Source: a virus. Taken from it: DNA of 64,000 nt. The position numbers and the translations under genes were made by a program. Below, in pieces: positions 11,111 to 56,656 of the stretch (positions within the stretch are counted from its first letter, which is position 1; each line of letters begins with the position of its first letter). The DNA is taken from IMG/VR virus record IMGVR_UViG_3300029319_007985, positions 64,001 through 128,000 of that record; one strand, given 5' to 3'. Below the pieces are notes generated by a model. The model saw only the letters and a program-made list of their open reading frames with translations, did no database searches and had not been told where the DNA came from.

Positions 11111-11659
11111 ATGCATTACAGAGAATTTATTGATAAAAGTTGTCCAAGAACAAAAGCAGAAAGTTGTTCTTGTGAAAGCATTAAGACATTGTCTGAACAG
11201 GCGTCTGATATAAAAGCATTTGTAGAACTTCAACACAGCGACAAAGTAAAAGGCACAATACTATTGATGCAGAAGCCTGGAACTCCAACTATGATCAAAG
11301 GAAGGATAGAAGGACTAACACCTGGCGAACATGGATTTCACATACATGAATTTGGCGACATGAGTGATGGATGTAAGTCAATGGGAGGACATTATAATCC
11401 AGACGGAGTTGACCATGGCGATCTAGAACAGGGACACGTTGGTGATCTTGGAAATGTATCCGCTGATGATTCCGGCATAGCAGACTTTACGATTGTGGCC
11501 AAGAGAGTTGACCTTGTTGGCGACAGATCGGTTGTTGGACGGGGTATGGTAATACACAAGGATGAAGACGATCTTGGTCGAGGTGGAGACGCAGAGTCCA
11601 AAAAAACTGGTAACGCTGGTGATCGACTGGCCTGCGGTGTGATTGTAATTAAAGAATAA
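11111..11659 (+). CDS. sodC: Cu/Zn superoxide dismutase with N-terminal extension, no signal peptide
   Basis: HGFHIHEFGD, GGHYNP, HVGDLGN, GNAGDRLACGVI. Confidence 0.93.
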   Translation: MHYREFIDKSCPRTKAESCSCESIKTLSEQASDIKAFVELQHSDKVKGTILLMQKPGTPTMIKGRIEGLTPGEHGFHIHEFGDMSDGCKSMGGHYNPDGVDHGDLEQGHVGDLGNVSADDSGIADFTIVAKRVDLVGDRSVVGRGMVIHKDEDDLGRGGDAESKKTGNAGDRLACGVIVIKE

Positions 11660-11677: not shown

Positions 11678-12517
11678 ATGGAAAACAATTCTTTATTGAG
11701 TTTTGGTTGTAGCCATATGTATGGCTGGGAACACAAAAGCACTGAAAACAATACCAAACCTAGCAAAGATGTCTATACCAATTTACTCGCTGAACATTAT
11801 AAGTTGAAACACTTTAATTTTGCCGAGGGAGGCGCCAGCAATCAAAGTATCGCAAGACAAGTTATATTTGGACTAGATTTCGAAAAAGAAAATAATTTAC
11901 AAAGCACCTATTGGATACAGTGGAGCAACTACGAGAGATTGGAGATTCCTTTTTTAAATTCAAAAAATTTAAGTAAAAATTGGCCTTACGTCCAAGTTTA
12001 TGCAGAACTTCTAAACACAACCAAGCAAAAACCACTGCTGAATTGGGCAGAAGCAATCTATAGAAACGTAGATAAGTTTGCCTGTTTACATTTGAGTCTG
12101 GCCTCAATCATACAAGTCAATAGTCTGCTAAGGCAAAAAAATAAAAAAGTAATAAACACCTTTGCACACACATGGGACCTTGACTGTAAAAAGTCAACAT
12201 ATTACATTAAAGACAACAACCTTAAGAACATGGACACCATGTACACAGATATGATATCAAAAGATAATAGTGATAAAGAGATGGTAGGTTCGTTGCTGTT
12301 AGGAAAAACTGGATCGGACTTTAAGGAATACGATCCTTATACGAAAAAACTTTGGAGTCTAGTTGATTCCTACGATTGGTTTGAATGGGGTGATAATAAC
12401 ATGGGATTCAAGCCATGGAGTGTGCAAAACGGGTACGGAGTCCATCCAGAAGGCCATCCTACTGAGAAAGCACACACTGAAGCATTCAATCTTATAAAAG
12501 AAAGAAAAATTATATAA
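11678..12517 (+). CDS. SGNH-hydrolase-like protein
   Basis: FGCSHMYG, NFAEGGASN, GHP...H. Confidence 0.55.
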   Translation: MENNSLLSFGCSHMYGWEHKSTENNTKPSKDVYTNLLAEHYKLKHFNFAEGGASNQSIARQVIFGLDFEKENNLQSTYWIQWSNYERLEIPFLNSKNLSKNWPYVQVYAELLNTTKQKPLLNWAEAIYRNVDKFACLHLSLASIIQVNSLLRQKNKKVINTFAHTWDLDCKKSTYYIKDNNLKNMDTMYTDMISKDNSDKEMVGSLLLGKTGSDFKEYDPYTKKLWSLVDSYDWFEWGDNNMGFKPWSVQNGYGVHPEGHPTEKAHTEAFNLIKERKII

Positions 12518-12518
12518 T

Positions 12519-12806
12519 ATGAAACCCAAAACTTTTAAATCATCTGACCTAAGCGGATACGATAAAAAATTCAAGCACAGCATTTATTTGAACAGTGATG
12601 GAGTTGTGGAAGATTACATCGACTGGTGCAGGAAAAATTGTAAAGGCCGTTGGGGATGGTGGTACGAGACCACTAGAGATTGGGACCTGCATTGGGACTC
12701 CAGTGGTAACAAGGCCTTTATGAGTTTCTCGAGAAGAAAAGAGGCCCTAAGTTTTTGGTTCCACAATTGCAAATTAATATATGACACAGATTACGGAAAA
12801 GATTGA
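12519..12806 (+). CDS. Hypothetical Trp-rich phage protein
   Basis: WCRKNCKGRWGW. Confidence 0.6.
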   Translation: MKPKTFKSSDLSGYDKKFKHSIYLNSDGVVEDYIDWCRKNCKGRWGWWYETTRDWDLHWDSSGNKAFMSFSRRKEALSFWFHNCKLIYDTDYGKD

Positions 12807-16311: not shown

Positions 16312-19300
16312 ATGACACAGCAACAAATCATAAATGTAGGTGTGACCGAAAACGATGGAACTGGTGACAGTATCCAGGCGGCGGGTAGCAAGATAAACCA
16401 CAATTTTAGCCAACTCTACACTGATAACAACATTGACGGAAACATACTATGGCAGGGTAACAAAATCACTAGTAACCTGTCTAATTCAGATATTGTGCTG
16501 ACAGCATCTGGTACAGGAAAAATTCAATTGGCCGGCATTAAGATAGGCGGCACATCAATGAGCAGTGATGACAGCACCACTATCAACATAAACGAAAATT
16601 TACAGGTTGATGGCTCTGTTACTGCGACCACATTGGTTGGTGGTGGCTCTGGATTGACAGGAGCATCAATTACTAACGTTGGAGATCTTAGTGCAACTGG
16701 GTCAACACTTATATCTCCATCCAATGCAGACTTAACTTTTTCAACTGCTGGCACAGGAAGGATGATACTTGGTGATTTTATTATATTGGATGATAATAAC
16801 TTTACAGGCTCAAGAACCAATGATGACATCAACATCACTCCAAATGGTACAGGCTGTATAAATTTTCCAGCAATACAAATAAAGGCCAATAATATCAACG
16901 GCTTGCGATCAAACGATGACATAGTTATTACGCCAGCAGGCACAGGATCAATTGTGTTGCCTGCAATCACCATCAATGACAACAACATAGAAGGCAAAAG
17001 AAGTAACGATGACATAAATCTATTTGCCAGCATCAGTGGTGCTGTAAATGTCACAGATATAACAATAGATTCAAGTTTACGTCTAGCAGACAATAATATC
17101 ACAGCATTGAATACAAATTCAGATATCAACATAAATCCATCAGGCACAGGACTGATACAAATCAGCAAGATTGATGTCGATGATGGTACCATAGATGGAA
17201 CAACAGTTGGGGCGACTATTCCTGCCGCCGGAACATTTTCTACCCTTAGTGCCACAACGTTTCAAACAACGGGTCTAACAATAACCGACAACAAAATAGT
17301 AGCGAACACGTCAAACTCTGATTTAGTTTTGACTGGCAGTGGTTCTGGTGGTGTGCTATTAAATGGATTTTCTTTACCTGCTAGTGATGGCAGTTCAGGA
17401 CAAATACTACGAACGGATGGCAGTAAGACATTGAGTTTTGCCACTTCTCCTTTGATACTTGGTGTGACAACTTTTGCGGACACAACTCAAGACATAAGTT
17501 TTAGATCGACCTCAACTATAGATGTTAACACTGCCATTATTGCACATGAAATTGTGCCTAATTCTTCTACGCCATTAGATAAATTTACTTCCACACAGTT
17601 TGACAGTGTGTGGTATCATGCAGTCACCAAAGATCAAACAAATAACAGGTTTGGAGTTGCAAAATACTCATTAGCCAGAGGAACAATCAATGACGGAAGC
17701 ACAATCGATTCGGTGGTATCACAATCAAACCTAGTAAGAACTACAACGCACAATCATATCACAGTTGACACACAAATAAATGGTACATTTACTCAGTTGG
17801 ATGGCACTGGACCATCGGCAGAAAACGCATTTAAGGCCTACAGAATTGGCTTGGGTGACAGTGACTCCAGCACCAGTTCAGGTAACGTGGCCACAATTGT
17901 TAATGCTGATGTTGACAGTGCAAGTGAATCTCTGGACTCATGGGCGTATGCCAGTTACCGTGGCGCCAAATATTACATCAGTGCAGAAAACAGCGACACT
18001 GGAGAAGTCAGCAACATTGAGGCATTGGTGGTTCACAATGGAAGTGATGCTTTCATAAACTCTTACAATGTTGTAAACACAGGCAACAACGATCTACTGT
18101 CTTTGACAGCGGCCATAAGCGGAAGCAATGTGGTTTTGAGCGGAGCGGCTTTGACTCCAAACACAAAAGTACGTATGTATAGAATACTTTTGTCTGACAA
18201 CGAGACTTCCAGCACAGGAGACAATGTGAGTCTAATTGGAAATAAAACAGTAGCGGCCAGCACTGAGACAGTAATAGATCATGTGACCAGTACCGGCACA
18301 TCTGTTGGAAATGCGGCGGCCACAAAAACCGTAAACAGTTTTACAGTTGGAGAATATGATAGTGCTCTTTATTTTGTTGTAACCAAAGACAACGTAAACT
18401 CAGGCTTTGAAACAGGTAAAATAAGTTTGATGCACAATTTAAATGATGCTTTTCTAACACATTCTAGCATAGTAAGAACAGATCCTACAGATGTTCATCC
18501 TACTTTTGATGCAGACATTGTCAGTGCAGGGGACAGCACCAGCACTGTGAGATTAAGAATGACAGATGGTGATGGATCAACTGTTACGCCTGCAAACAGC
18601 ATGGCATTTTACAGAATAGGTTTGGGTGACAGTGATTCCACAGGGTACGTCGGTGAAATAACTTTGGTCAATGATATCACGGTTACAAACATCATAGATA
18701 GTTCAACCGCTACACTGGACGCATTTACGCACGGCTCACACGTTGGAGCAAAATATTTTATCTCGGTTAATAATCAATCCACAGGCGAAGTTGGAAACAT
18801 TGAAGCATTGGTCACTCATGACGGAACCAACGCATACATCACTACATACAACGAATCTTTTTCAGGCAACAACAGCCTTATCAGTCTGTCGGCGGTCATT
18901 AGTGGTACTTCTGTTATATTAAGAGGTTCTGCCACTGCAGGTGGTAGCACCAAAGTAATAGTCAACAGAGTAGTAGCATTTGGTGATTCAGAATCAAATG
19001 AAGCAAACTCAGATAGCACAAGAAAGATAATAGGTAATGTAATTGTTTCTAGCAGTGCAACGACCTTTGATAGTTTTTCGAGCGATGATGTTGATGCGGC
19101 CCATTACGTGATTACTGGTCAAAAAGGTTCCGATGAAAATTTCATTTGTGAGGCGATGGTTGTGACAGATGGGTCCAATGTGTTTGTGTCACAAGGTCCA
19201 AATGTCAGTACCAAGGAAAATGACATGTTGGAAATCACTGCAACAATTTCAGGCGGAACTGTAAGTGTTAAAGCAAGTTCTACTTCTGGTGCATCAACTG

Positions 19301-29042: not shown

Positions 29043-29489
29043 ATGGGACAAATAGAAGATTTACAAAATAAAGGTTTTGGCAGTCACGGTGGAAGACAGT
29101 ACACCGTTGAATATGATATTACTCCATTAAAGAAACGTGTTTTGGTAACAAACATGAAATTTGGAGAGATCAAAACTGCCGGGGGAATAATTATACCTGA
29201 CGATGACGGTACCGAATCTGGCATACACCCGCGTTGGGCAGAAGTGTACGCAGTAGGTAGCAAACAGGAAGACGTCAAAGTAGGGCAATGGATATTGGTG
29301 GCTCACGGCAGATGGAGTAGATCTTTCAAAGTTAAAAAGAATGGAAAAGAATTTGAAGTGAGAATGATTGATGAAAATGACATTTTATTAGTTTCTGACG
29401 AAAGACCCGCTGACGAAACATCTAAAAAAGCAGGTTACGTAAACACTGGCGGTATGCAACAAATGACAAGTTTACCGGGAAATGATTAA
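29043..29489 (+). CDS. groES: Co-chaperonin GroES-like
   Basis: [30 protein letters not shown]. Confidence 0.82.
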
Positions 29490-30748
29490 TGGAAGAAGAA
29501 AAAAAATATAAACCAGTAAACACAAACAAAGTGGCGGAGAACACTTCGCCGTTCAAAGGTGTGTTAGGTTGGCTAGATAACAGACTGCCAGTATTCAGGA
29601 TGTTCAAGCACGAATACTTGGACTTCCAAGTACCAAAAACTTTGACATACTTTTGGAGTTTTGGAGCAATATTGACATTTTGTTTATTAGGTCTAATTAT
29701 AACAGGCCTAATATTAGGAATGCATTATAAACCATCTACGGCAGAAGCATTTGACAGTGTTGAAAAAATTATGCGTGATGTCAACTACGGTTGGCTGATA
29801 AGGTACATGCATATGAACCTGGCGTCCTTTTTCTTTATTGCAGTCTATATACACATGTTCCGCGGATTATATTTTGGTTCTTACAAATCACCTCGAGAAC
29901 TTATGTGGATCTTAGGATTAATAATTTATTTCTTAATGGTGGCAACTGCATTTTTAGGATACACTTTGCCATGGGGGCAAATGAGTTTTTGGGGAGCAAC
30001 TGTTATAACAAGTTTATTTGGAGCAATACCTTATATTGGTGAAACTATAACACATTGGTTATGGGGCGCCTACGCAGTTGACGATCCAACATTAAACAGG
30101 TTTTATGTATTGCACTGGCTTATAGCATTTCTAATTGTGGGTGTTGTGTTGTTTCATGTTATTGCACTACACATGACCGGATCAAACAATCCAACAGGAG
30201 TTGAACCAAAAGACACTAGAGATACTGTAAGTTTTCATCCTTATGTCACAACAAAGGATTTATTTGCATTTTTAGTTTTTATTGTAATATTCGCGGCATT
30301 TTTATTTTTCATGCCTAACTATCTTGGACACCCTGACAACTATATAAAAGCCAATCCGTTAGTGACACCTGCACATATTGTACCTGAGTGGTATTTTTTA
30401 CCTTGGTACGCAGTGCTAAGAGCGATACCTGACAAACTAGGCGGAGTAATTGCAATGGTGTCAGCGATCGGCGTAATAGGTTTACTGCCATGGCTAGACA
30501 CTAGTAAGATAAGAAGTTCTATATATAGACCAGTCTGGAAACAGTTTGTTTGGATTTTGGTTGCGGACTTCTTCCTTCTAATGTACTGCGGTGCTATGCC
30601 GGCGGAACAACCATTTGTTCTTTTGAGTCAAATAGGTACAGCATATTGGTTCTTATTTTTCTTAGTAATTGCACCGGTTGTGGGTTGGACCGAGAAACCT
30701 ACACCTCCCCCTGCGGCTATTCACTTATACAAAAAATCTAAAAAATGA
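29489..30748 (+). CDS. petB: Cytochrome b of the bc1 complex, full length
   Basis: Two His pairs 14 residues apart (YMHMN/YIHMF, LHWL/LFHV), [18 protein letters not shown]. Confidence 0.96.
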
Positions 30749-45062: not shown

Positions 45063-45074
45063 TAAATACTGCAT

Positions 45075-45512
45075 ATGAACACCTACGAAGACATTAAAAC
45101 ACTTATATCACGTTTAGACAGCATAGCCAAAGCACCGGAGTATCAACCATTCCCAGAAGCAGATGAATTCAATATCGAAGAAGATGAAGATTTTGAAGAA
45201 GTGTTAGGAGTGTTAGGTTTTCCAGAGGATGAAATATGGGAAGCGGAATATAGAGGTAGAAAAGTCAAACTAAACAAGCCTATGAGAGGCGATGTAAAAA
45301 AATTCAAAGTATTTGTAAAAGATCCAAAATCAGGCAACGTAAAAAAAGTTAACTTTGGTCACGGTGGAACTTCTGCCAAAAAATTAGGACAAAAAACAAT
45401 GCGTATCAGAAAGTCCGATCCAGCAAGACGTAGAAGTTTCAGAGCAAGACACAACTGTGCTAATCCAGGTCCAAAAACAAAGGCAAGATACTGGAGTTGC
45501 AGAAAATGGTAA
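45075..45512 (+). CDS. Putative internal head protein (acidic leader plus basic module)
   Basis: Acidic N-half, IWE|AEYRGRKVKLNKP, basic Cys/His C-half. Confidence 0.6.
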   Translation: MNTYEDIKTLISRLDSIAKAPEYQPFPEADEFNIEEDEDFEEVLGVLGFPEDEIWEAEYRGRKVKLNKPMRGDVKKFKVFVKDPKSGNVKKVNFGHGGTSAKKLGQKTMRIRKSDPARRRSFRARHNCANPGPKTKARYWSCRKW

Positions 45513-45865
45513 GGGCAGTCCAATTTATTAAAGAAGCCGTAGACTCTGATGCAATGAACGAGTTGAAGTTGTTCATCAACAATGATGAAGATCTATACAG
45601 AAAAAAGTTCATGCCAATTATAGCAAATATTAAAAGAAAAATAAAAAGAGGAGTTTACAATCATGAGATGGCTCCTAAATTATGGATGTATCTCGTTGAC
45701 GAAGCGGCAAGAAAATATGTAAAAGAATTTGGTTCTCCTGATCAAGACGTTGCTGATATGTTTCCAAAAGAATTACGCCAACAAATTGCAAAAGACATGG
45801 CTGACGAAGAACAAGAAAAAATAGAGGCAGGAGAATACGATGTTGTTAAAGGAACTATTTCTTAA
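45506..45865 (+). CDS. Putative internal head protein
   Basis: MVRAVQFIKE|A. Confidence 0.55.
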   Translation: MVRAVQFIKEAVDSDAMNELKLFINNDEDLYRKKFMPIIANIKRKIKRGVYNHEMAPKLWMYLVDEAARKYVKEFGSPDQDVADMFPKELRQQIAKDMADEEQEKIEAGEYDVVKGTIS

Positions 45866-47015
45866 CGAAGACGAAGGCAACATAGCCGTATTTGCTTTTG
45901 GAAGATTTAACCCACCCACAGTTGCACACCAAAAACTTATAAAACAAGTGCAGGATCTTGCCACAAAATTGAATGGCAGACCTTTTATTTTTTTAAGTCA
46001 TACACAAAACAATGCCACTGATCCTTTAAGTTTTCAAGAGAAGTTAGATTACATTGAAGGCGTGTATGGCAAAGACAAAGTTGTATTTGGAGATGCTGGC
46101 GTAAAGACAATAGTGCAAGTTCTACAAAAACTACAGGATGAAGGCAGAACAAAAGTTGTAATGGTTGCTGGCAGTGATCGGGTACAAAATTTCACAAAAC
46201 TGCTTGACCAATACAACAACAAACCTGACAAGTCAGGCAACATTCTTTACAACTTTGACAGCATAAGTGTGGTAAGTGCCGGACAGCGTGATCCTGATGC
46301 TGAAGGTATGTCGGGTGTGAGTGCCAGCAAGGCAAGAGAGTACGCCCAGGCAGATGATTTTGAAAATTTTAGTAAAATTGTAATGGGTGGTAAAGTTAGT
46401 GCCAAACTTTTCATGAAGATCAAGTCCAAGATGGGACAAAAGGTTGCAGTCAACAACGAAAAGTTGTATAATGAAGATATGGATGGTAAACCTACAGTGT
46501 ATCTTGACATGGATGGAGTACTGGCTGATTTCTTTGGCGGGGTCGAAAAACTGTATGGTGTGAGTCATTGGAAGGAACTTACATCTGATAAAACAAAAGA
46601 TCTCAAAGCAGAAGTGATCAACAGGATAACAGGTACTGATTTCTTTGCAACATTGCCTAAATTTAAATCCGCAGATGACCTAATACAACTTGTAAAGAAA
46701 TTCACTGGTGGAAAATTTTCAATAAACACATCACCACTTAGAGGTGACAATGAGAACTCCGGCAAGTATAAAAAAATATGGATCTCAAATAACATCGAAA
46801 AGCCAGACGAGATAGTGGTTACCGGTAGGAAAGAAACCTACGCCAAAGACAAGGCCTCCGGGACACCAAACATCCTCATAGATGATAGACCAGTCAACAT
46901 TGAACGTTGGGAGAATGCTGGCGGTCATGGAATTTTATATCAGGCCAATCGAGATCCGCTAACTAAAGTAGAGAAGGGATTACAAGATTATGGCAAGATA
47001 CGAGGGAATCAATAG
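45840..47015 (+). CDS. HIGH-type nucleotidyltransferase-like domain fused to HAD 5'(3')-nucleotidase
   Basis: FGRFNPPTVAH, AGSDR, SASKAR; YLDMDGVLADF, LIDD. Confidence 0.8.
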   Translation: MLLKELFLNEDEGNIAVFAFGRFNPPTVAHQKLIKQVQDLATKLNGRPFIFLSHTQNNATDPLSFQEKLDYIEGVYGKDKVVFGDAGVKTIVQVLQKLQDEGRTKVVMVAGSDRVQNFTKLLDQYNNKPDKSGNILYNFDSISVVSAGQRDPDAEGMSGVSASKAREYAQADDFENFSKIVMGGKVSAKLFMKIKSKMGQKVAVNNEKLYNEDMDGKPTVYLDMDGVLADFFGGVEKLYGVSHWKELTSDKTKDLKAEVINRITGTDFFATLPKFKSADDLIQLVKKFTGGKFSINTSPLRGDNENSGKYKKIWISNNIEKPDEIVVTGRKETYAKDKASGTPNILIDDRPVNIERWENAGGHGILYQANRDPLTKVEKGLQDYGKIRGNQ

Positions 47016-47238
47016 AAACTACGAAGCAGGTATTTGGAACAAAGAAGAAGGACCGTCTCCGGAACAAAAGAAGGCCGAAAGAGAAAGATTGATGAAAGAG
47101 TTCTTGGCCAAAGGCGGAAAGGTAGAAAAACTTGCTCCAGGCAACGCCAAAGTATATGGCTCATTGAACAAAGGTGGAAAACCTCCTTTCACTGACGCAC
47201 AGTTGAAAGCAAAATGGAGAGAGGAAAATGGATCTTGA
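46990..47238 (+). CDS. Hypothetical protein
   Basis: EFLAKGGKVEKL. Confidence 0.6.
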   Translation: MARYEGINRNYEAGIWNKEEGPSPEQKKAERERLMKEFLAKGGKVEKLAPGNAKVYGSLNKGGKPPFTDAQLKAKWREENGS

Positions 47239-47428
47239 TACCCTCAAAAGGCTGGCCGGCGTAGGGCACTCCACTAATATAAAAGAAAATCCTTCTATCA
47301 CAGGCACGGAGAAAGCAAAATATCAAAGAAAGCATAACATCGAACCTGGTTCCCAAGAATGGTTCAAACTTTGGTTCAGCCGTCCAAAAATGACTGGCGA
47401 GAACCCAATGCCAAAATCTAAAAAATAA
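47228..47428 (+). CDS. Putative internal head protein
   Basis: LKRLAGV, IKE|N, PGSQEWFKLWF. Confidence 0.55.
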   Translation: MDLDTLKRLAGVGHSTNIKENPSITGTEKAKYQRKHNIEPGSQEWFKLWFSRPKMTGENPMPKSKK

Positions 47429-47431
47429 TTG

Positions 47432-48409
47432 ATGAACTTTTTAGAAATATCGCTGAAAACAGAACACACTTCTGTTCCTGCCCACCTAAAAATATATTGC
47501 AGTGATGAATTAGTATTTGATGATCTTATCGATAAAAATTTGGTTATAAAGAAACAATTTGAAACGCCAAAAGTATTCGAACTAAAAATAATCAAAACTG
47601 GAAAAAACATAGATTTAGTAAAAAAAGATCACATACAAAAAGTACAGATAGAAAAAGTAAGTGTAAATGGTATCAATTTGAAAATAAATGAATTTGGCAA
47701 CTTTCAAGTGCATGATAATCCTTACGTTGATGATCACACTCTACAAACAGTTGATTTGAATCTTAACGGCACGTGGACACTGCAACTACAGGAACAAAAG
47801 TTGATCGGACAATTTGAACCAGCAAAAGCAAAGTTCAGAGATGCCATACAAGACTGTGATATCGCATGTTTTGGTTGTAGTCAAACGTATGGAGTTTTTT
47901 TAGACCATAACGAAACTTGGCCATATTTTTTAGGCAAAGAACTAGGACTCAACGTGAAGAATTTTGGAATACCAGGATCAAACTACAATGAGATGACTGC
48001 ATTCATGGAATACTATGTAAAAAATTACAAAGCCAAAACAATTTTGGCGCTATTCCCACATTCGTTCAGAAGACAATCTATTGATAATGGAAAGATTGAA
48101 CACATAGGTGCTGTGGATGAACGCAACAAACATTTAATTTTCCACGGAGAAGAACATTCCATTGTGAATCTGTCGATGTGTTTTCCTGCCTGGCTAGAAA
48201 GTGTTCATGATAATATTATGGTCAGTACCTATCAACGCAGTGAACACAATTTAATGATGCTTACAAATATTAAAAAGCACATGCTACCATACTTTGATTC
48301 AGATCCTTACCCTAAAGCAAGTGATGGGAAGCATTTTGGTGTAGAACATAACCTAAGTTACGCAAAAGCACTTGCAAAGCACATCAATCAGCAAACTACA
48401 TTCCAATAA
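47432..48409 (+). CDS. Beta-domain plus SGNH-like protein
   Basis: FGCSQTYG, NFGIPGSN, DGKHFG. Confidence 0.55.
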   Translation: MNFLEISLKTEHTSVPAHLKIYCSDELVFDDLIDKNLVIKKQFETPKVFELKIIKTGKNIDLVKKDHIQKVQIEKVSVNGINLKINEFGNFQVHDNPYVDDHTLQTVDLNLNGTWTLQLQEQKLIGQFEPAKAKFRDAIQDCDIACFGCSQTYGVFLDHNETWPYFLGKELGLNVKNFGIPGSNYNEMTAFMEYYVKNYKAKTILALFPHSFRRQSIDNGKIEHIGAVDERNKHLIFHGEEHSIVNLSMCFPAWLESVHDNIMVSTYQRSEHNLMMLTNIKKHMLPYFDSDPYPKASDGKHFGVEHNLSYAKALAKHINQQTTFQ

Positions 48410-48417
48410 ATACCTTT

Positions 48418-48546
48418 ATGAAAACATGGGAAATCACAGAAGGTACTAGATGCTGGAAAGGATATGAACGTAAAGGATTCAAAATACATCCTTTCTCAAA
48501 GAAACGTGTGCCCAACTGTGTGAAAAGAAAAGCCAAAAGAAAATAA
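48418..48546 (+). CDS. 42-aa basic peptide (CWKGY...VPNCV), absent from ORF track
   Basis: MKTWEITE|GTRCWKGY...; TAAATA 5 nt upstream; module recurs in 48802. Confidence 0.75.
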   Translation: MKTWEITEGTRCWKGYERKGFKIHPFSKKRVPNCVKRKAKRK

Positions 48547-48547
48547 A

Positions 48548-48805
48548 ATGAAAATTCGAGAGATCTTATACACCACAGATCGTAATTTGTTACAGCCTGA
48601 CATCAATAAAATAATAGACAAATATAGTAGCAGAGCAAAAAAGAGAAAATCAAACCTAGGATACCACAGCATGATGGCCTATCCGTTTAGAGTAGGAGAA
48701 GGTAAAAGTTGGAGTAAAAAATATAAGAAGTCTATCAACTGCAACAATCCAAAAGGCTTCTCACAGAAGGCCCACTGCGCAGGAAGAAAGAAAAAGAAAA
48801 AATGA
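48548..48805 (+). CDS. Putative internal head protein
   Basis: MKIREIL; VGE|GKSWSKKYKKSINCNNPKGFSQKAHC. Confidence 0.6.
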   Translation: MKIREILYTTDRNLLQPDINKIIDKYSSRAKKRKSNLGYHSMMAYPFRVGEGKSWSKKYKKSINCNNPKGFSQKAHCAGRKKKKK

Positions 48806-49497
48806 AAATTAAAGAGTTCATAATCATGCCATCTAGCATAGACACACTTGGCCTTGTCCACAAGCCAGGCCGTGGTCCAAACAACAGATTCGATTTCAAA
48901 AACAAAGCAAATAATAGAGCAAACGAAGTAGGTGAAACCAAGGAAGCACCACCAGGCACATATTTTACTAAAACAGGCAACTTAGTTAAAGGAAGATTGA
49001 CCAAGGCCGCGAAAGAAAGAGGAGCAAGAGAAACTGATCCAAAAGATGATCAAAGATCTAAAGTGCCGCCAGTCACACAAAGGAATGAAGCGAGAGGTAC
49101 CTGCTGGCATGGATATCAACAAAAAGGTTATAAGAAAAAAGGCAACAAAATGGTTCCTAATTGTGTTAAGGAAGAGGCCGCTGGTGTTGGCATAGTAACA
49201 AAACAAAACGCCACAAAAGACGTGCCTGTAGGTGGCGAATACATGAACGTAAAAAAATTAGGCCTAGGTAAAGGCAAGCCAAAAACAATAGGCGAAGAAT
49301 GGAAACAGTTCCAAGAAAATTTTGCCGACAAAAAAGTCAAAGGTAAAAGTAGGCCTGGGCGGGTCAAAAGGGCAGGAGCAAGTTGTAAAGGCTCAGTTAC
49401 AAGTTTAAGAGCAAAGGCAAAAAAATCAAGTGGTGAAAGAAGAAAGATGTATCACTGGTGTGCCAACATGAAATCCGGTAGGAAAAAATCCAGATAA
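48802..49497 (+). CDS. Putative polyprotein of basic modules
   Basis: MKIKEFI; modules separated by TKE|A, RNE|A, VKE|E, FQE|N. Confidence 0.6.
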   Translation: MKIKEFIIMPSSIDTLGLVHKPGRGPNNRFDFKNKANNRANEVGETKEAPPGTYFTKTGNLVKGRLTKAAKERGARETDPKDDQRSKVPPVTQRNEARGTCWHGYQQKGYKKKGNKMVPNCVKEEAAGVGIVTKQNATKDVPVGGEYMNVKKLGLGKGKPKTIGEEWKQFQENFADKKVKGKSRPGRVKRAGASCKGSVTSLRAKAKKSSGERRKMYHWCANMKSGRKKSR

Positions 49498-49506
49498 CTA
49501 CTGGAT

Positions 49507-50256
49507 ATGGACGTAATTTTAAGTTTAGGTTTTCTTTGTAACATTTTTAAAAAAGCACCAACAGTAAGGCTCTTTGCTGATGAATATTTTCTAGATGAAT
49601 TTACCTTAAAAAATACTGTTGATAAATCCACACTAAAAAGTTTATTATCAAACAAAGACAACTTTGATTTTATTTTTCCAAAAAAAGTCAGCAATTTACT
49701 AGACCCAAATGTGCAAATGGTTGACCCACAAATAGATGCTAATGTTGAATATAAATTCTATCGCATAAAAAAGTTTAATCTAAAGAAAAAAGATAAAGTC
49801 AAAGTAAAAATCGAATTTTATAATAGGGACTCTAATCATACAAACGGATTCATCACAAAAAGCACAATGGTGTGTGTTCCATACGTTTTAATTACTCCAA
49901 CCAAGATTATGAAAGACATAACAACATTTCATAAGAAGTGGTATCAAAAAGTTAAATTTGAACAGCAAAAACAAAACAAATTTAAATTTATAAAGAAATT
50001 TTACAAACACAGATCACGTCTTTTCAACTGCATAGAACATCGCAATTATTGGTTTAAGGATAGGCAGACTAAAAATTTATTATACACGTACTTCGCAGGT
50101 GGTGATGTAACGCTAGAAAGGACCTTTTATAAAAAACATAACTTGTACATCGGTGATCCAAATACCATTGGCTATGTGTTGTTTGGACACTACCAAAGGT
50201 TTAAAAAACTATCAGATAAATACCTTCAATATGAGAATCTGCGAAATAATCATTAG
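49507..50256 (+). CDS. Hypothetical protein
   Basis: Lys/Phe-rich 249-aa ORF. Confidence 0.55.
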   Translation: MDVILSLGFLCNIFKKAPTVRLFADEYFLDEFTLKNTVDKSTLKSLLSNKDNFDFIFPKKVSNLLDPNVQMVDPQIDANVEYKFYRIKKFNLKKKDKVKVKIEFYNRDSNHTNGFITKSTMVCVPYVLITPTKIMKDITTFHKKWYQKVKFEQQKQNKFKFIKKFYKHRSRLFNCIEHRNYWFKDRQTKNLLYTYFAGGDVTLERTFYKKHNLYIGDPNTIGYVLFGHYQRFKKLSDKYLQYENLRNNH

Positions 50257-50497
50257 AGAACAGGCCACTGCCGGCGCCACTTCTGCTGGCAATATTGCAT
50301 CTGTAGTCAGTCCACATATCGCAATAGGACCTGATAGGTTCAAGAAATCATATACAGGCACGCCTGGAAAATCAGGCACTAAGGCACCAAAGTTGCCTAA
50401 GATTGTTCAACCAAAAAAGAAAGATGGCACGGCAAAAGGCGCACATAATTTACCAGGAGTAAGTTTGTTTGGCGGGCCAGGATTTGTGAGAAGATGA
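50231..50497 (+). CDS. Putative internal head protein (start moved to 50231)
   Basis: MRICEIIIRE|QATAGATSAGNIA; TAAATA at 50217. Confidence 0.6.
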   Translation: MRICEIIIREQATAGATSAGNIASVVSPHIAIGPDRFKKSYTGTPGKSGTKAPKLPKIVQPKKKDGTAKGAHNLPGVSLFGGPGFVRR

Positions 50498-50652
50498 GTT
50501 ACTGTTTAAATTGTGGCAACGAGTGCCACGAAGGAAAAGTGTTAACAAGAACTGAAAAAACTTATGCAGTAGAAGGTGCGAAGGAATACGAAATAGAAGT
50601 CTGTAAATATTGCAGATGTGAAGACGAATTAATGGATGCTTTAGAAGAATGA
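50494..50652 (+). CDS. Small Cys-rich protein, 52 aa
   Basis: CLNCGNECH...CKYCRC; ATGA overlaps at both ends. Confidence 0.65.
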   Translation: MSYCLNCGNECHEGKVLTRTEKTYAVEGAKEYEIEVCKYCRCEDELMDALEE

Positions 50653-51551
50653 AATTTTTAATATTCAATGGTAGTTTAAAGGCAGATGCAGAATCAAATA
50701 CTTTTGCTGTTTGCAAAATGTTACAACTGGCCTTTGATAAACTTGGACATGAATGTGAGATAGTCACATTGAGAGATCTTGACTACGAAGGATCAACTGA
50801 TGATGTAAATGATGAACTTAAACCTTATATCATGAAGATGTTCGACATGGACGGAATAATTTTTGCTACTCCAATTTGGTGGGGCACACATAGTTGTCAT
50901 ATCCAGGCCATGTTGGAAAGACTTGACTTTATATACAGTTGGGCCAAAGACAACAAGTATCAACCATTTTATAACAAAGTATTTGGCACATTAGTGTCAG
51001 GTGGTGGAGATGGATTCCAACACATTCACGGAGTACTATATTCAGCGGCATCTAATTTTGGATTTACTATTCCGCCGCAGTGTAACATCGAATCCAAGGC
51101 ACAGGGCATAGAAGAAATCAAAAAAGACGAAGACACTTACAACCAAGTTAAAAACTGTGCGACTAACATGACAGTCTGGGGAGAACTGATGAGAGCCGGA
51201 AATCCTACACTGGCGGCAAGGCACGGTAGTGTCGACGTAAACGAAGCACTGGCTGAAGGAAAAAGAATACCACGTAAAAAAGGACAAAAGAGGAAAAGCA
51301 AAAAACATAGTGACCTTTACACAGATGAAGATCCAAAAGGCACTATCCACGGACTAGGATTCAAAGACGAGGCCACAGCAAGAGCCAGTGTAACAAAAAT
51401 CCGAAAGAGCGGTAGATCACACGCACACAAGATACAGGCCGCAGTGGCAATGGAACAGAGAGCGAGAGCGGCAGGCAAATCAGGACCAGCGGCGATCTAT
51501 AGAAAATATATCAACAGCATGAAGAAAAAAACAAAGGCTAAGAAAAAATAA
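50649..51551 (+). CDS. Flavodoxin/FMN reductase fused to a basic C-terminal module
   Basis: FNGSLK...SNT, FATPIWWG; VNE|ALAE|GKRIPRKK. Confidence 0.8.
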   Translation: MKFLIFNGSLKADAESNTFAVCKMLQLAFDKLGHECEIVTLRDLDYEGSTDDVNDELKPYIMKMFDMDGIIFATPIWWGTHSCHIQAMLERLDFIYSWAKDNKYQPFYNKVFGTLVSGGGDGFQHIHGVLYSAASNFGFTIPPQCNIESKAQGIEEIKKDEDTYNQVKNCATNMTVWGELMRAGNPTLAARHGSVDVNEALAEGKRIPRKKGQKRKSKKHSDLYTDEDPKGTIHGLGFKDEATARASVTKIRKSGRSHAHKIQAAVAMEQRARAAGKSGPAAIYRKYINSMKKKTKAKKK

Positions 51552-51955
51552 TGAAAAGATTGGATATCAACGACAACACTAGTATCAGTATGCCAATAAG
51601 AAATATGATTGCAATTATAGGTGCAGTGGGCGTTGGCGTGTGGGCATACTTTGGAATCACAGAAAAATTGAATCAACATTCCACTTCGCTTACATTAATG
51701 AAAAAAGAGATGGAAGAAAACACAGAATTCAGGATAAAATATCCAAGAGGTGAATTGGGTCAGTCACAAAACGACCTTGAACAATTCATGCTTATTGAAG
51801 AACTTTACAAAACAGTTGACAAGATGGAAGGCGTGTTAGAAAACAACATGACCAATAAAGTTAATATTGAATTTTTAAGAAAACAAGTTGACAAAATGAT
51901 CGGCGATATTGAAGCACTGAAAGACGCTGATAGACAGATACAAAACGGACACTAA
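51551..51955 (+). CDS. Membrane-anchored coiled-coil protein
   Basis: One TM, then coiled coil. Confidence 0.6.
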   Translation: MKRLDINDNTSISMPIRNMIAIIGAVGVGVWAYFGITEKLNQHSTSLTLMKKEMEENTEFRIKYPRGELGQSQNDLEQFMLIEELYKTVDKMEGVLENNMTNKVNIEFLRKQVDKMIGDIEALKDADRQIQNGH

Positions 51956-52170
51956 TGATTGAAACAGTTGTTGCTTTATTAATGATAGTACATGGTGAAA
52001 TCAAAGAACATCGTATTCAAGACTCTATGAGTGCATGTTTACGAGGTAAAAGAACAGCAGAGAGACAGTTTTCAGCAGGGGTCAAATACCAGTGTATCAA
52101 AAGCAAGGCTGAATTAGAAGAGAATGTAGACGGTTCAAGAGCAATCAAAAAAATAATATTGGCTGAATAA
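51955..52170 (+). CDS. Small hypothetical protein
   Basis: TAATG-coupled; two Cys. Confidence 0.6.
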   Translation: MIETVVALLMIVHGEIKEHRIQDSMSACLRGKRTAERQFSAGVKYQCIKSKAELEENVDGSRAIKKIILAE

Positions 52171-52178
52171 ATACACAT

Positions 52179-53681
52179 ATGCGTTTAAAAGAAATCAATC
52201 ATCCGGTACAAGCAGACACATACGAAGCAAGTATGGCCCTGAATCAGTTGCTAAAAATAGGGCAACACGCAATCAAACTACACAACCTACTTAAAGATGA
52301 ACAGGAAATGGAGTCTTGGGTGGCCAAGAAGATTGACCTAGCAGGTGACTATGTTAAAAAAGTACACGGTTACATGATGGGTGAAAAAGCAGGTTTGTAT
52401 GATGACGCAGGCGAAGGACACATGAGCAAAAGCACATTGTATCACACTGCCAAGTATGCAATACAACTTATGCAGATGATAGACAAAGGTGATGACCTAG
52501 AAGGTTGGGTGCAAAGCAAACTGAATAAGGCCGCTGATTATCTACAGGGTGCGTACAACTATGAAGAATATCAAAAACTATCTCCATACAGAGAAGACCT
52601 AGACGGATCAACATTTTCAAAACACAAAGAAATTATCAAAAAAAACATAGACGAGATATTGGCCAAAGAAACTGATCTAGATGACACAGACACAAAACCA
52701 GGCATGATGAGGATCCTTGGCAAAAGAGTTAATGACGTGGAAAAAGAAATGTCAAAAAAAATGCGTAAAGAACCGCCTGTGTTAGACAAAGACTTTGATG
52801 ACCAACCGAGATACAAAGGACAAAGAATAGATGTTGGTGAAAAACATGGTGGCGAACACAGCACATCAGGTAGAAGCATGACCAAGGGCGAAATGAACAA
52901 AAGAGAAAAAATTGTTAAAGCAATGAAGAAAGACAAAGCAGGATTCAAGAAAAGATATGGTAAAGATGCAGACGCAGTGATGTATGCCACAGCAACCAAA
53001 CAAGCAATGGGCGAGGACAAGTACGAATTCAGAGGCAATCCTTTTCCTATATTGGGCAAAGCAGAAAGTTATCTAAACTACGGTTCGGACATGGCAAAAG
53101 CCATCATGAACAACAGTGACAATTTGAAGGCCATGGCACAAACCTACTTGGACAGAGTACCTAGTTTCGTAAACACAGAGATGAAAGAAATATTTCCTAA
53201 AAACGAAAGCGGTATCATGTACAGAGCGGGTGTTAAAAAATACGGCAAAGCAGGTATGAAAGCCATACAAAGTGCCGCAGGCAAAGGTGCTAGTCATCAA
53301 GAAATAGGTAAAATTAAAGACAAGTATTTGAAAGACGATGAAATCGACGAAGGACTTAAAGACACACTTCAAAAATTGGCGGCCGCTGGAATAATTGTTG
53401 GTACAATGGCCGGTGCTGGATCTATGATTAATGCTTTAGATAATAGTGTGCCTGCAATGAAAGCCATGAATACTGCTTACAAAATGGCAACTGATGCAGG
53501 TAATGAAGAACTAGCACAAATGATTAAAAATGATATTTCAGCAGTAAAAGTAAGACTAAGTTCAGGCAAAGATTTAAACTTTGTGAAAGCAATGCAGGAC
53601 AAATATAGTAAATTCATGCCAACAGAAGGTTTAGCGTATGAGTCAAAACTCGCTGTACTGCTTAATCAACAACTTAAATAA
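52179..53681 (+). CDS. Putative internal head polyprotein
   Basis: MRLKEI; tandem AI.L...E.WV..K...A.DY repeat; VGE|K, MGE|D, KNE|S, IDE|G junctions. Confidence 0.6.
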   Translation: MRLKEINHPVQADTYEASMALNQLLKIGQHAIKLHNLLKDEQEMESWVAKKIDLAGDYVKKVHGYMMGEKAGLYDDAGEGHMSKSTLYHTAKYAIQLMQMIDKGDDLEGWVQSKLNKAADYLQGAYNYEEYQKLSPYREDLDGSTFSKHKEIIKKNIDEILAKETDLDDTDTKPGMMRILGKRVNDVEKEMSKKMRKEPPVLDKDFDDQPRYKGQRIDVGEKHGGEHSTSGRSMTKGEMNKREKIVKAMKKDKAGFKKRYGKDADAVMYATATKQAMGEDKYEFRGNPFPILGKAESYLNYGSDMAKAIMNNSDNLKAMAQTYLDRVPSFVNTEMKEIFPKNESGIMYRAGVKKYGKAGMKAIQSAAGKGASHQEIGKIKDKYLKDDEIDEGLKDTLQKLAAAGIIVGTMAGAGSMINALDNSVPAMKAMNTAYKMATDAGNEELAQMIKNDISAVKVRLSSGKDLNFVKAMQDKYSKFMPTEGLAYESKLAVLLNQQLK

Positions 53682-53707
53682 AACAGCAACACTACTAAAT
53701 AAATCAA

Positions 53708-54832
53708 ATGGCAAGTAAAAAACCCAAAAAAGAAAACAGTTTCGCAGACCTAGTCGCTCGTTTGAACGCAATGAGCAACATGACTAAGGAAGAAGAACGT
53801 GCATCTCTTATGGAAGCGGCTAGACAAGAGCCAAGAATATTAGATGACAAAGAAGTTTCACTGGCTGACATCGCAAAACTAGCCGGAATAAAAGAGTACC
53901 AAGAGGAACCAAAAGTTTCTGCTAAAGCAGAGAAGTTGGTTGAGTCGATCACAAAAGAATCAAGCGCAGAGTCTATAATAACAAAAGCCATAAAAGAATC
54001 AGATGCAGATGAATCAATTTCAACACAAATTAAAAAAGAGGTTACAGAAGAATCTAAAAGATTAGACAAAATTGCAGAATTGGAAGCGCAATTGGCAGAA
54101 TTAAAAGCACAGGAAAAAGAAGAAGCAACACTGGATTCAGATGCTTTCAAAGAAACATTTGTAAATGAAATAACAGAATACGTAAAAGAAGCAGAAGCAG
54201 ACAAACTTGCAGAACTATATAATGCTTTTTCAAATAACACAGTTGAAGTTAAGGAAGATTCATTTTTAATTAAAACACCAGAAACGCAAGAAGTTATAGC
54301 AGACGCAGAAAAGGCAGAAGCACCAGCAGAAGAAGAAGTTGTACAGGAAAAGGAACCAGAAGTAGACACTGAACAAGCAACTGACGAGGCTTCAGGATAC
54401 CAGGGTTCAGCAGAAGCAAGAAAACACGAAGTGACTTTAGCGGGTGATTTTACTCCAGAAGAGCCGGTGACAGAAAAAGATGCCGAATCAATTGAAAAAA
54501 TGTTACAGGACGCAGGTATTCCTGCAGAAGTAAGTCCTACCGATGAAAAATTTGATAGAGTTCAAGTACAAACAATGGCTGACAAAGATGCTATTTTAAA
54601 AGTTTTAGGTGACATGGTCGAAGAGAACATGGAAGTAGAATACACCGATGACTTATCAGAAGCAAAAAAGAAGCCTGTACCAACTTCTCCCGAAAAATGG
54701 TCCAGAGCAAAGGCCAAAGCAAGATCCAAATTTGATGTTTATCCATCTGCATATGCAAACGCATACGCCGCCAAAGAGTACAAAAAAATGGGTGGTGGTT
54801 GGAGAATGGGTAAGCCTAAGAAGAAAAAGTAA
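53708..54832 (+). CDS. Acidic scaffold-like protein with basic C-terminal module
   Basis: Glu-rich, KLAGIKE, many xxE|S/A sites; LSE|AKKKP...YPSAYAN. Confidence 0.6.
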   Translation: MASKKPKKENSFADLVARLNAMSNMTKEEERASLMEAARQEPRILDDKEVSLADIAKLAGIKEYQEEPKVSAKAEKLVESITKESSAESIITKAIKESDADESISTQIKKEVTEESKRLDKIAELEAQLAELKAQEKEEATLDSDAFKETFVNEITEYVKEAEADKLAELYNAFSNNTVEVKEDSFLIKTPETQEVIADAEKAEAPAEEEVVQEKEPEVDTEQATDEASGYQGSAEARKHEVTLAGDFTPEEPVTEKDAESIEKMLQDAGIPAEVSPTDEKFDRVQVQTMADKDAILKVLGDMVEENMEVEYTDDLSEAKKKPVPTSPEKWSRAKAKARSKFDVYPSAYANAYAAKEYKKMGGGWRMGKPKKKK

Positions 54833-54844
54833 TAAGTACGTGTG

Positions 54845-55495
54845 ATGAAAATCACATTAACCCAAAATAAATTTAATCCAAATCCATATTACGATCAACG
54901 AATAAAAGCAATTCTTTCTGACAACTTTGTTAAAAACTTACCAGGAACAATAGATACCTTTGACCAGAATGGTTTCGATCTTACTAATCTTGAAAGATTA
55001 TATGCCAAAAAAATGGACTACAAAATTAAAAAGGTTAGAACAAGCCACTGGGTGTTGAAAGAAGATTGGTTCACTTCCGAGCCAACAGACAGAGGTTGCC
55101 ATATAAATCACGCAGTGATTTTTGAAAGAAAAGGATTTACAGGTGCGGCAAAAGAACAAATGGAAGAATTTGCTGAGAAATGTCCTTTGGTTCATAAAGT
55201 CTTGCAAATAAGACCTAAATGGGGATTGGACTTTTCAATAGACTATGCAGATGCCGAGGGTAACGTGTTTGAAGTGTTACATTGGGAGTGGGACAGTTTT
55301 AATTTTGAAGAAATACAGGAAAAGAAAAAATACATGGATGATTTTTTACAGGCACAAGATTTTGATGAAATGGCTCTACGACTATTGGACAAAAAGTCAG
55401 AGTGGCACCATTTAGGCTTTTTTGAACAAAGTGATTACAAAACTAATTTTTTTGGTATAGAAAAAGAACGATTTAAGATGGTTCTCTGGAAATAA
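54845..55495 (+). CDS. Hypothetical phage protein
   Basis: TAAGTA 6 nt upstream. Confidence 0.6.
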   Translation: MKITLTQNKFNPNPYYDQRIKAILSDNFVKNLPGTIDTFDQNGFDLTNLERLYAKKMDYKIKKVRTSHWVLKEDWFTSEPTDRGCHINHAVIFERKGFTGAAKEQMEEFAEKCPLVHKVLQIRPKWGLDFSIDYADAEGNVFEVLHWEWDSFNFEEIQEKKKYMDDFLQAQDFDEMALRLLDKKSEWHHLGFFEQSDYKTNFFGIEKERFKMVLWK

Positions 55496-55503
55496 ATATT
55501 GAT

Positions 55504-56358
55504 ATGACTATACCTTGGAATTTTAAACAATACTATCAGAACCTAGCGCATCTAAAACAAAGAGGACACGTAAGTTCGGGAGAACAGATTCAGTCTCCAG
55601 TATCAGCAGGTAGCCGAGGACTTGCCAACGTTGAACATTTTGCTGACAAGTCAGTGCAAATGATGGGATCACAAATAGATGAATCTGCTGATAGAGAATA
55701 CCAAAATTTAGACAAAGATACTATTGAAAAACTTAGAGAGAAATACCTACCTGATTGGGAATACAAAGATAACAGTTTACAAAAAAGATATAAGTTTGAA
55801 GATTACTTCCAGGTAGTGAAGTTTTTGATTGACACAATAAAGCCACAAGAAGAACTAGACCATCATGCAGACTTAGGAGTCTTCTACGATGAAGTTTTGG
55901 TAAAAATTTACACACACAGAACAAAAGATGTCACTGACTATGATTTTAAGGTCGCACTGCAAATGGATATGATTGCAAAAAAGAAACATGGTGCAATAAA
56001 ACCTGATTATGACTTATCAGCCTTAGTTGATGATTTTGATTTTTGTATAAACTGTGGCGACTTGATACTAAATGAAAGAAAGTACCAAGGTGGATTGCGT
56101 AAATGGTTCAAACAAAAATGGGTGAACATAGCCAAGAAAAAGAAAGGTGGAGGCCATCCTGAGTGTGGTACTTCAGGTTCTAAAAGAGGTTATGCAAAAT
56201 GTGTGCCGGCATCAAAGGCACGTTCAATGTCAAAAAAGCAGAAAAAGTCAGCAGTATCAAGAAAAAGAGCCGCACAGCGAAAAGCAGGTAGAGGTGGTAA
56301 AGATACAGGTGGCACTGGTAAAAAGCCAATTAGAGTTTCTACAAAGCCTAAAAAATAA
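55504..56358 (+). CDS. Pterin-4a-carbinolamine dehydratase domain flanked by a leader and a basic module
   Basis: DHHADL, IYTH, VTDYD; IDE|S before, LNE|RKYQGGLRKWF after. Confidence 0.75.
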   Translation: MTIPWNFKQYYQNLAHLKQRGHVSSGEQIQSPVSAGSRGLANVEHFADKSVQMMGSQIDESADREYQNLDKDTIEKLREKYLPDWEYKDNSLQKRYKFEDYFQVVKFLIDTIKPQEELDHHADLGVFYDEVLVKIYTHRTKDVTDYDFKVALQMDMIAKKKHGAIKPDYDLSALVDDFDFCINCGDLILNERKYQGGLRKWFKQKWVNIAKKKKGGGHPECGTSGSKRGYAKCVPASKARSMSKKQKKSAVSRKRAAQRKAGRGGKDTGGTGKKPIRVSTKPKK

Positions 56359-56404: not shown

Positions 56405-56656
56405 ATGCGAAATTTCAACGAAGCAGAAAAACAAAAACTAATACAAATTATAAACCAAGGTTCACAAGTTCTCGGAGAAGTCGACGATCTTAAATCAGGA
56501 TTGAAGGACACTGTAAGGGCACTTGCAGAAGAACTAGAACTTAAACCAGCACTCATCAACAAAGCCATATCGGTTGCACACAAAGACAACTACAAGGGTG
56601 TGTCAGACGACATGGATCAAGTAGAAGCGATACTAACAGCCGCGGGTAAAATTTAG
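56405..56656 (+). CDS. DsbA/GapR-like dsDNA-binding protein
   Basis: 83-aa helical protein, LKDTVRALAEELELKPALINKAI. Confidence 0.6.
   Translation: MRNFNEAEKQKLIQIINQGSQVLGEVDDLKSGLKDTVRALAEELELKPALINKAISVAHKDNYKGVSDDMDQVEAILTAAGKI

Follow-up and report, generated by a model that had tools for sequence, protein, structure and literature searches.

A probable internal-protein system with polyprotein cargo in putative late genes of a marine jumbo phage

What would a run of small, lysine-rich and oddly fused proteins do for a large phage, and where would they act? The question is raised by 19 genes, all on the plus strand, at positions 45063-56358 of a 64,000-nucleotide stretch of viral DNA. 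This stretch, here called the window, covers bases 64001-128000 of a linear record of 172 kb (IMGVR_UViG_3300029319_007985), which is estimated to be 47% complete. Judged by its sequence, the source of the window is a marine jumbo myovirus of the Atu_ph07/Rak2 type; its DNA polymerase is nearest to those of Sinorhizobium phage Phosso (49%), Agrobacterium phage Atu_ph07 (45%) and Rak2-like phages. Many of the block's proteins begin with a short leader, or have domain borders (junctions) that read hydrophobic-x-Glu. From these features and from the data on relatives given below, the block is probably an expanded T4-type internal-protein system with polyprotein cargo, whose products would be targeted to the head and cut there. 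Genes are named by their start positions in the window (e.g. 48802). A sequence-only reading had proposed that about a dozen of them share this grammar. This holds for about 11 of the 19, while six (47432, 49507, 50494, 51551, 51955 and 54845) lack both leader and junction and the membership of 46990 and 47228 is uncertain.

The leader is the simplest of these features. Its exact form, M[KR]xx[EQ][IFL], was set by the sequence-only reading, whose quoted N-termini are all present in the sequence; the start of one leader gene had to be corrected, from 50153 to 50231. The exact motif opens 5/19 block genes (48418, 48548, 48802, 50231 and 52179) but only 1/213 genes elsewhere in the genome (p=1e-5). 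In a relative, G006, the DNA polymerase is 84% identical to that of the window phage and the block is syntenic. There, in a genome not used to define the motif, it opens 6/13 genes of the block and 2/135 others (p=3e-6). The few matches outside the block are plausible head proteins, one of them adjoining the portal gene. With the conserved variants in 45506 and 45840, a leader ending in hydrophobic-x-Glu is found in 7 of the 11 members, and homologues of 45506 retain it as MRASQFIxE; the other four members bear junctions only. In cyanophage homologues, a T4-like MKTFxQFxE stands ahead of the same modules. Leader-like starts also occur outside the block. A Cu/Zn superoxide dismutase at 11111-11659 (phrog_1975) has such a start and an LSE junction, and relatives carry the leader joined to the dismutase as well as the dismutase fused to module H; it is likely to be a head cargo. 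Further examples lie outside the window (L001:9446-10663, 11705-12547 and 16999-17355 in genome coordinates), and one of them matches phrog_455, a conserved partner of cytidylyltransferase in T4-like marine phages.

The junctions are best seen by comparison with related loci, of which 240 were used. Homology to the window proteins begins and ends at fixed points, and the proposed module shuffling is borne out, with 22 labelled modules combined into at least 63 architectures. At BLAST breakpoints chosen without regard to the motif (n=1011), hydrophobic-x-Glu is present in 42%, against 19% at random positions (standard deviation 1.2%), whereas the same test with Asp gives 19% against 15%, and in other proteins hydrophobic-x-Glu is not enriched at all (9% against 10%). 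With anchors chosen by hand inside the modules, after the modules had been seen, the motif stands in 93/132 independent upstream contexts against a background of 14.6%, and the Asp control in 13/132 against 12.7%. The proposed border [ILVFM]xE|[AGSDEN] is thus enriched over background up to the glutamate, but its last position was drawn too narrowly; Q, R, K, T and L also follow the site. Within four enzyme domains the full motif is absent (0 observed, 4.8 expected, p=0.009). As an example of how the sites are used, the FMN (flavin mononucleotide) reductase joins three different modules after one and the same site, and its solo forms end at most 4 residues from it; none of 15 homologues has a leader. 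The predicted pieces are enzymes or, as had been proposed, small basic proteins, of 4-11 kDa with an isoelectric point (pI) of 10-11.6, several of which have two Cys and a His.

Module A shows the pattern most clearly. Its profile begins after the site, so that upstream contexts lie outside the search, which found 4,103 clusters at 50% identity. Among the best 145 matches, P3 (the first letter of the site) is L, M, I or V in 90%, P2 is free, and P1 is Glu (82%) or Asp (18%); 59/66 unrelated upstream contexts read hydrophobic-x-Glu. The basic modules are strongly conserved (83-89% column identity), and module A on its own is predicted to be folded (pLDDT 84). Fold searches gave no PDB match with Z of at least 2 for module A and otherwise only uncharacterised viral proteins; for module B they gave generic helices. 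Notably, the modules also exist on their own. Module A is a separate gene of 79-90 amino acids (aa) in HTVC026P, Aegir, CRP-901 and one archaeal spindle virus, with Met1 of four solo homologues in small viruses aligned opposite the junction Glu. In HTVC203P, 027P and 106P, solo genes for the modules of 53708 and 55504 lie side by side. The pieces can therefore stand alone as proteins, and cutting would bring back this solo state. Other cultured phages that carry basic modules are HTVC008M, S-SM2, Bellamy, P-TIM68 and Melnitz. In small pelagiphages (L278, L279, L280 and L095), clusters of 3-6 tiny Lys-rich solo-module genes adjoin homologues of 51551/51955.

A suitable protease is found in G006, where acidic core, protease, scaffold and capsid genes lie in a row. 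The protease matches T4 gp21 (PDB 5JBL, E=4e-15) and keeps His, as well as Ser where the crystal form has Ala. The scaffold is rich in hydrophobic-x-Glu (8.5 per 100 aa against 1.8). The capsid matches gp23 (E=5e-42), and LAE41, the predicted cleavage site, just precedes the gp23* homology; in Atu_ph07, whose capsid and protease are 61% and 50% identical to those of G006, LME58 is the predicted site in the same place. Both lie about 12 residues downstream of the T4 site. The capsid of RaK2 runs below its predicted mass (PMC3622015). The 13 residues after LAE41 of G006 (L102:13638-14810) are nearly the same as the peptide after the 50231 leader, and the C-terminal end of Atu_ph07 gp53 carries the same capsid-arm peptide after ITE. 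The 50231 peptide copies the N-arm behind the predicted capsid cleavage site and could dock on the inner capsid wall.

An outside test is offered by the virion proteome of Atu_ph07. The published table (PMC6102473) was mapped to the genome by mass and order, dropping five ambiguously mapped rows; the phage stock was only purified with polyethylene glycol, and the 667 non-virion open reading frames (ORFs) are our own calls, slightly above the annotated number. All 14 carriers of the leader motif are in the virion proteome, against 0/667 ORFs not detected there (p=8e-12). Eleven of the 14 belong to one family, so that by family the count is 4 against 0 (p=7e-4); a broader motif gives 11 virion families against 3 (p=4e-7). 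Among the TAAATA genes alone, the motif is present in 8/45 virion and 0/38 non-virion genes (p=0.007). Control motifs gave no signal in this test, and a loose motif (hydrophobic-x-Glu ending at positions 7-13) is a weak predictor (odds 2). Gel positions were also compared, with band masses calibrated from predicted masses and band 10 lying outside the calibration. The 87-kDa gp53 peaks at about 22 kDa (predicted pieces 14-27 kDa), gp482 and gp483 (32-34 kDa) at about 15 kDa each (predicted pieces 15-16 and 17 kDa) and the 24-kDa gp594 at about 12 kDa or less (predicted piece 7 kDa), while leader proteins with one module migrate at full size. The tandem family gp54-64 and gp408 (L267, L268) has eleven paralogues with near-identical leaders, all in virions. 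Taken together, the motif statistics, the gp21 homologue and capsid site of G006 and this proteome give good comparative support to the part of the sequence-only reading that concerns head targeting and processing by a prohead protease.

Several points weigh against it. Protease, scaffold and capsid genes were not found in the 47%-complete fragment of the window phage, where searches with hidden Markov models of gp20, gp21 and gp23 gave no match. Four members (45075, 50649, 53708 and 55504) have a junction and no leader, so targeting there needs another explanation, perhaps a helical N-terminus or a fused module. In one sublineage P1 before module A is Asp (18% of representatives, 6/66 contexts), and Asp at P1 blocks processing in T4 (PMC9026906). 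This sublineage (loci L008, L011, L019, L023 and L025) is unexplained if cutting is required. In Atu_ph07, leader proteins as a whole do not differ from other proteins in low migration (3/18 against 10/51, not significant), and the basic modules have no homologue; only the 50231 peptide matched there, weakly (E 0.04), in gp53 and gp215. The Atu_ph07 cytidylyltransferase and nucleotidase are leaderless and not in virions, so enzyme cargo would be lineage-dependent; in cyanophages, cytidylyltransferases have been detected in virions repeatedly (PMC10665884, PMC9602691). Finally, ORF175 and ORF176 of the cyanophage S-SCSM2R, the latter a polyprotein with module W, are not named among its 23 virion proteins, of which one is unnamed and which come from a shallow filter-based method.

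Other explanations account for parts of this evidence. The most serious, which we consider a minority possibility to be kept in mind, is that the proteins are parts of the prohead core: they would enter and be cut, and the pieces would mostly leave or remain as filler without delivery to the host. It shares targeting and cutting with the internal-protein reading and differs only in the fate of the pieces. The acidic 53708, with its 9 sites, resembles the core proteins of G006 and Atu_ph07 gp200 and gp213, 50231 looks like the capsid N-arm and 47228 like the tail of the scaffold, and T4 core proteins are likewise cut into fragments (PMC9026906). Intact enzymes and conserved, folded basic modules free of internal sites fit a disposable scaffold poorly, and it is for the acidic parts that this explanation probably holds. 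A clearly less likely idea is that the junctions are fossils, where loss of a stop codon fused neighbouring genes, the internal site is the old leader of the downstream gene, and the fused proteins act uncut, with leaders perhaps trimmed. Many junctions indeed resemble a former start (K-K-K-M-x-E-E), Met takes P3 in 19% before module A, linkers are generally acidic, and the Asp sublineage would be no obstacle. Yet P3 and P1 stay constant amid a variable P2 and variable sequence everywhere upstream, the Asp control is flat, the motif is depleted within enzymes, and Atu_ph07 multi-module proteins run at fragment size whereas one-module proteins run at full length. Origin by fusion is in any case compatible with cutting.

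The basic modules might also act in the late cytoplasm, in nucleic-acid or ribosome binding or in lysis timing, with leader-like starts as a feature of late translation; we rate this slightly lower still. It would suit the leaderless solo homologues in podoviruses, a siphovirus and an archaeal spindle virus, all outside the T4 group, and the silence of the S-SCSM2R virion data on these modules, but the leader predicts virion presence even among Atu_ph07 genes with TAAATA, and the junctions are conserved at the protein level. In other phages, moreover, fusions join module A to proteins with the names ChaB and XkdF, which we take to be head-linked. Chance deserves mention since Glu and hydrophobic residues are common, the motif has only three letters and occurs 1.8 times per 100 residues, and many sites in 52179 and 53708 lie away from evident borders. 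For the set as a whole, chance is refuted by the breakpoint, anchor, leader, module A and Atu_ph07 tests with their controls, which leaves it next to no credence; single sites are uncertain.

On the preferred reading, then, the block would encode internal head proteins of a T4-superfamily jumbo phage, expressed from putative late promoters. The leader, generalised as M-[KR]-hydrophobic-x-[EDQ]-hydrophobic-x(1-3)-E, would be the local form of the T4 capsid-targeting sequence and bring the proteins into the prohead, as the correlation in Atu_ph07 suggests; fusion to a core-associating partner could be another way in. A gp21-type prohead protease would cut after hydrophobic-x-Glu, so that leaders and acidic propeptides come off and the polyproteins fall into single enzymes and basic proteins of 4-11 kDa, a step that we infer from the placement of the motif and from gel positions in the relative. 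Because each piece starts and ends at a cut site, genes could be fused, split and swapped freely with the mature products unchanged, which would explain the shuffling. It is plausible from their charge that the basic pieces bind the packaged DNA and neutralise its charge, and by analogy with T4 some cargo may be ejected with the DNA, for which the chances are perhaps even. A wider version, tentative and on balance doubtful, is that in T4-superfamily phages the head protease processes polyproteins in general, and that the basic modules belong to an undescribed and very common family of small nucleoproteins of the virion. Podoviruses, siphoviruses and archaeal spindle viruses would share this family as solo genes and giant eukaryotic viruses as DUF5872/DUF5754, and the pieces would coat the packaged genome and enter the host with it. 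The internal-protein reading would say where a large class of hypothetical proteins in abundant aquatic phages is located and by what rule it is processed, and with a pattern of 8-10 residues virion cargo would become predictable from sequence, as is the case in Atu_ph07. If true, the pattern would tell which auxiliary enzymes arrive as protein in the first minute of infection and which are expressed later, and it bears on the old question of what neutralises the charge of the DNA and what large heads eject.

Among known systems, the nearest is that of T4. Its capsid-targeting sequence is 10 residues long; positions 4 and 7 serve in targeting and positions 8 and 10 in cutting, and the cut made by gp21 follows L/I-x-E (PMC9026906). 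The T4 proteins IPI, IPII, IPIII and Alt (PMC9026906, PMC3012670) share with the block a leader of about 10 residues with two hydrophobic anchors and a hydrophobic-x-Glu end, small Lys-rich products, a constant tag on variable cargo, and gp21, gp22 and gp23 homologues in the clade. The anchors of the block occupy positions 3 and 6 (4 and 7 in T4), and its P3 also accepts M, V and F. T4 internal proteins are single small proteins, whereas one gene of the block would give up to five or more predicted pieces, enzymes included, in 63 shuffled architectures. Profile scans of the block proteins gave no Pfam or PHROG match to T4 internal proteins. The system would work like that of T4 but is not one of the IPI-III families, and on the best reading the polyprotein arrangement is the new part of an otherwise T4-like system; a literature search that did not cover subscription journals found no paper describing it.

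The inner-body and ejection proteins of phiKZ and SPN3US, which gp175 and gp245 cut (PMC5694885, PMC9026906), are also from jumbo phages in which the prohead protease cuts many head proteins after Glu. They differ in motif (S/A-x-E), in their long propeptides and in phage group, and no strings of interchangeable mini-proteins have been described for them. Polyvalent proteins (Iyer et al. 2017, PMC5512222) likewise join unrelated domains in one chain, are predicted to be packaged and delivered, and have been likened to polyproteins. They are defined by MuF, ArdC-N and embedded peptidases, whereas cutting in the block would be in trans by the head protease; that study explicitly excludes the T4-like Alt family, and the identity was rejected as the block has no Pfam or PHROG match to MuF, ArdC-N or an embedded peptidase. 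The DNA-condensing basic viral protein DVNP (PMC11953307) and DUF5872, DUF5754 and DUF5771 of nucleocytoplasmic large DNA viruses, three families without known function, resemble the modules in being small with a pI above 10. DVNP was rejected since no Pfam match was found at E up to 1 and modules A and B have no PDB fold match. Three window modules match DUF5872/DUF5754 weakly (E 6e-4 to 1e-2, below the cut-off), and DUF5771 is a lead at the level of features only. The 56-aa module of 53708 weakly matches the N-half of DUF5872 and the 92-aa module of 55504 its C-half, so this giant-virus family appears split over two window genes (54662-54829 and 56080-56355).

The positions of the features are collected in the table. 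The block had been called TAAATA-rich, which did not hold up: TAAATA is depleted overall (40 observed, 80 expected), and the block is not unusual, with only 8 copies, 6 of them directly ahead of gene starts at a spacing of 5-8 nt, since the marking of starts is genome-wide. Of 92 genomic copies, 55 sit at most 30 nt ahead of an ORF-opening ATG, often of tail- or baseplate-type genes. The T4 late promoter is TATAAATA, and by analogy TAAATA appears to behave like a late promoter of this type. Throughout the genome it sits only 4-8 nt ahead of many ATGs, so that late transcripts would be leaderless or have very short leaders.

Features of the block at 45063-56358, in window coordinates (numbers after E, residue positions in the protein)
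Position	Strand	Feature	Remarks
45063..45068	+	TAAATA late-promoter-like box	6 nt upstream of ATG
48407, 50217, 52168, 53696, 55493	+	Further TAAATA boxes
upstream of 54845	+	TAAGTA variant
45075..45512	+	145 aa: acidic propeptide, helical N-terminus, junction IWE56, basic module A
45243-45509	+	Module A	89 aa, pI 11.6, His/Cys/Cys invariant, weak DUF5754 match
45506..45865	+	119 aa: variant leader ending FIKE10, acidic body	No function assigned
45840..47015	+	391 aa: leader up to FLNE10, then a cytidylyltransferase-like and a 5'-nucleotidase (NT5C-like) domain joined at LYNE212
46990..47238	+	82 aa basic protein, no clear leader	Membership uncertain
47228..47428	+	66 aa basic protein, N-terminal L-x-x-LAG helix	Membership uncertain
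47432..48409	+	325 aa with an SGNH-like motif (judged by eye)	No leader or junction; outside system
48418..48546	+	42 aa: leader up to ITE8, then module G (34 aa, basic, Cys)
48548..48805	+	85 aa: leader and small basic piece, then after VGE51 module W (34 aa, basic, Cys/His)
48802..49497	+	231 aa polyprotein: leader ahead of small modules R, T, G, V and N (five)	Junctions close to E47, E97, E124/125 and E172
49507..50256	+	249 aa	No grammar; outside system
50231..50497	+	88 aa: leader ending IIRE10, capsid-like peptide, basic tail
50649..51551	+	300 aa: FMN reductase/flavodoxin, junctions VNE199 and LAE203, basic module B	Module B at 51258-51548
51551..52170	+	Two genes, 134 and 71 aa, hydrophobic segments	No grammar; outside system
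52179..53681	+	500 aa polyprotein: leader followed by repeated helical modules, module H (basic), module S and a C-terminal domain
53708..54832	+	374 aa: acidic, 9 motif sites, core/scaffold-like body; after junction LSE318 a basic module of 56 aa
54845..55495	+	216 aa conserved stand-alone protein	No grammar; outside system
55504..56358	+	284 aa: N-terminal module, IDE60, pterin-4a-carbinolamine dehydratase, LNE191, 92-aa basic Cys module

Some further observations concern single genes. No homologues of 49507 were found in the related loci, and a tblastn search of cultured phages with 48802 gave no match; the gene pair at 51551..52170 is also present in small pelagiphages. The L-x-x-LAG helix of 47228 recurs, judged by eye, inside 53708, at the C-terminus of the G006 (L102) scaffold and in the Atu_ph07 virion proteins gp111 and gp257, and it is possible that it acts as a second head address. 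Directly ahead of the DNA polymerase lies a small T4 DsbA-like protein (56405-56656), and a full-length cytochrome b-like gene is found amid phage genes at 29489-30748.

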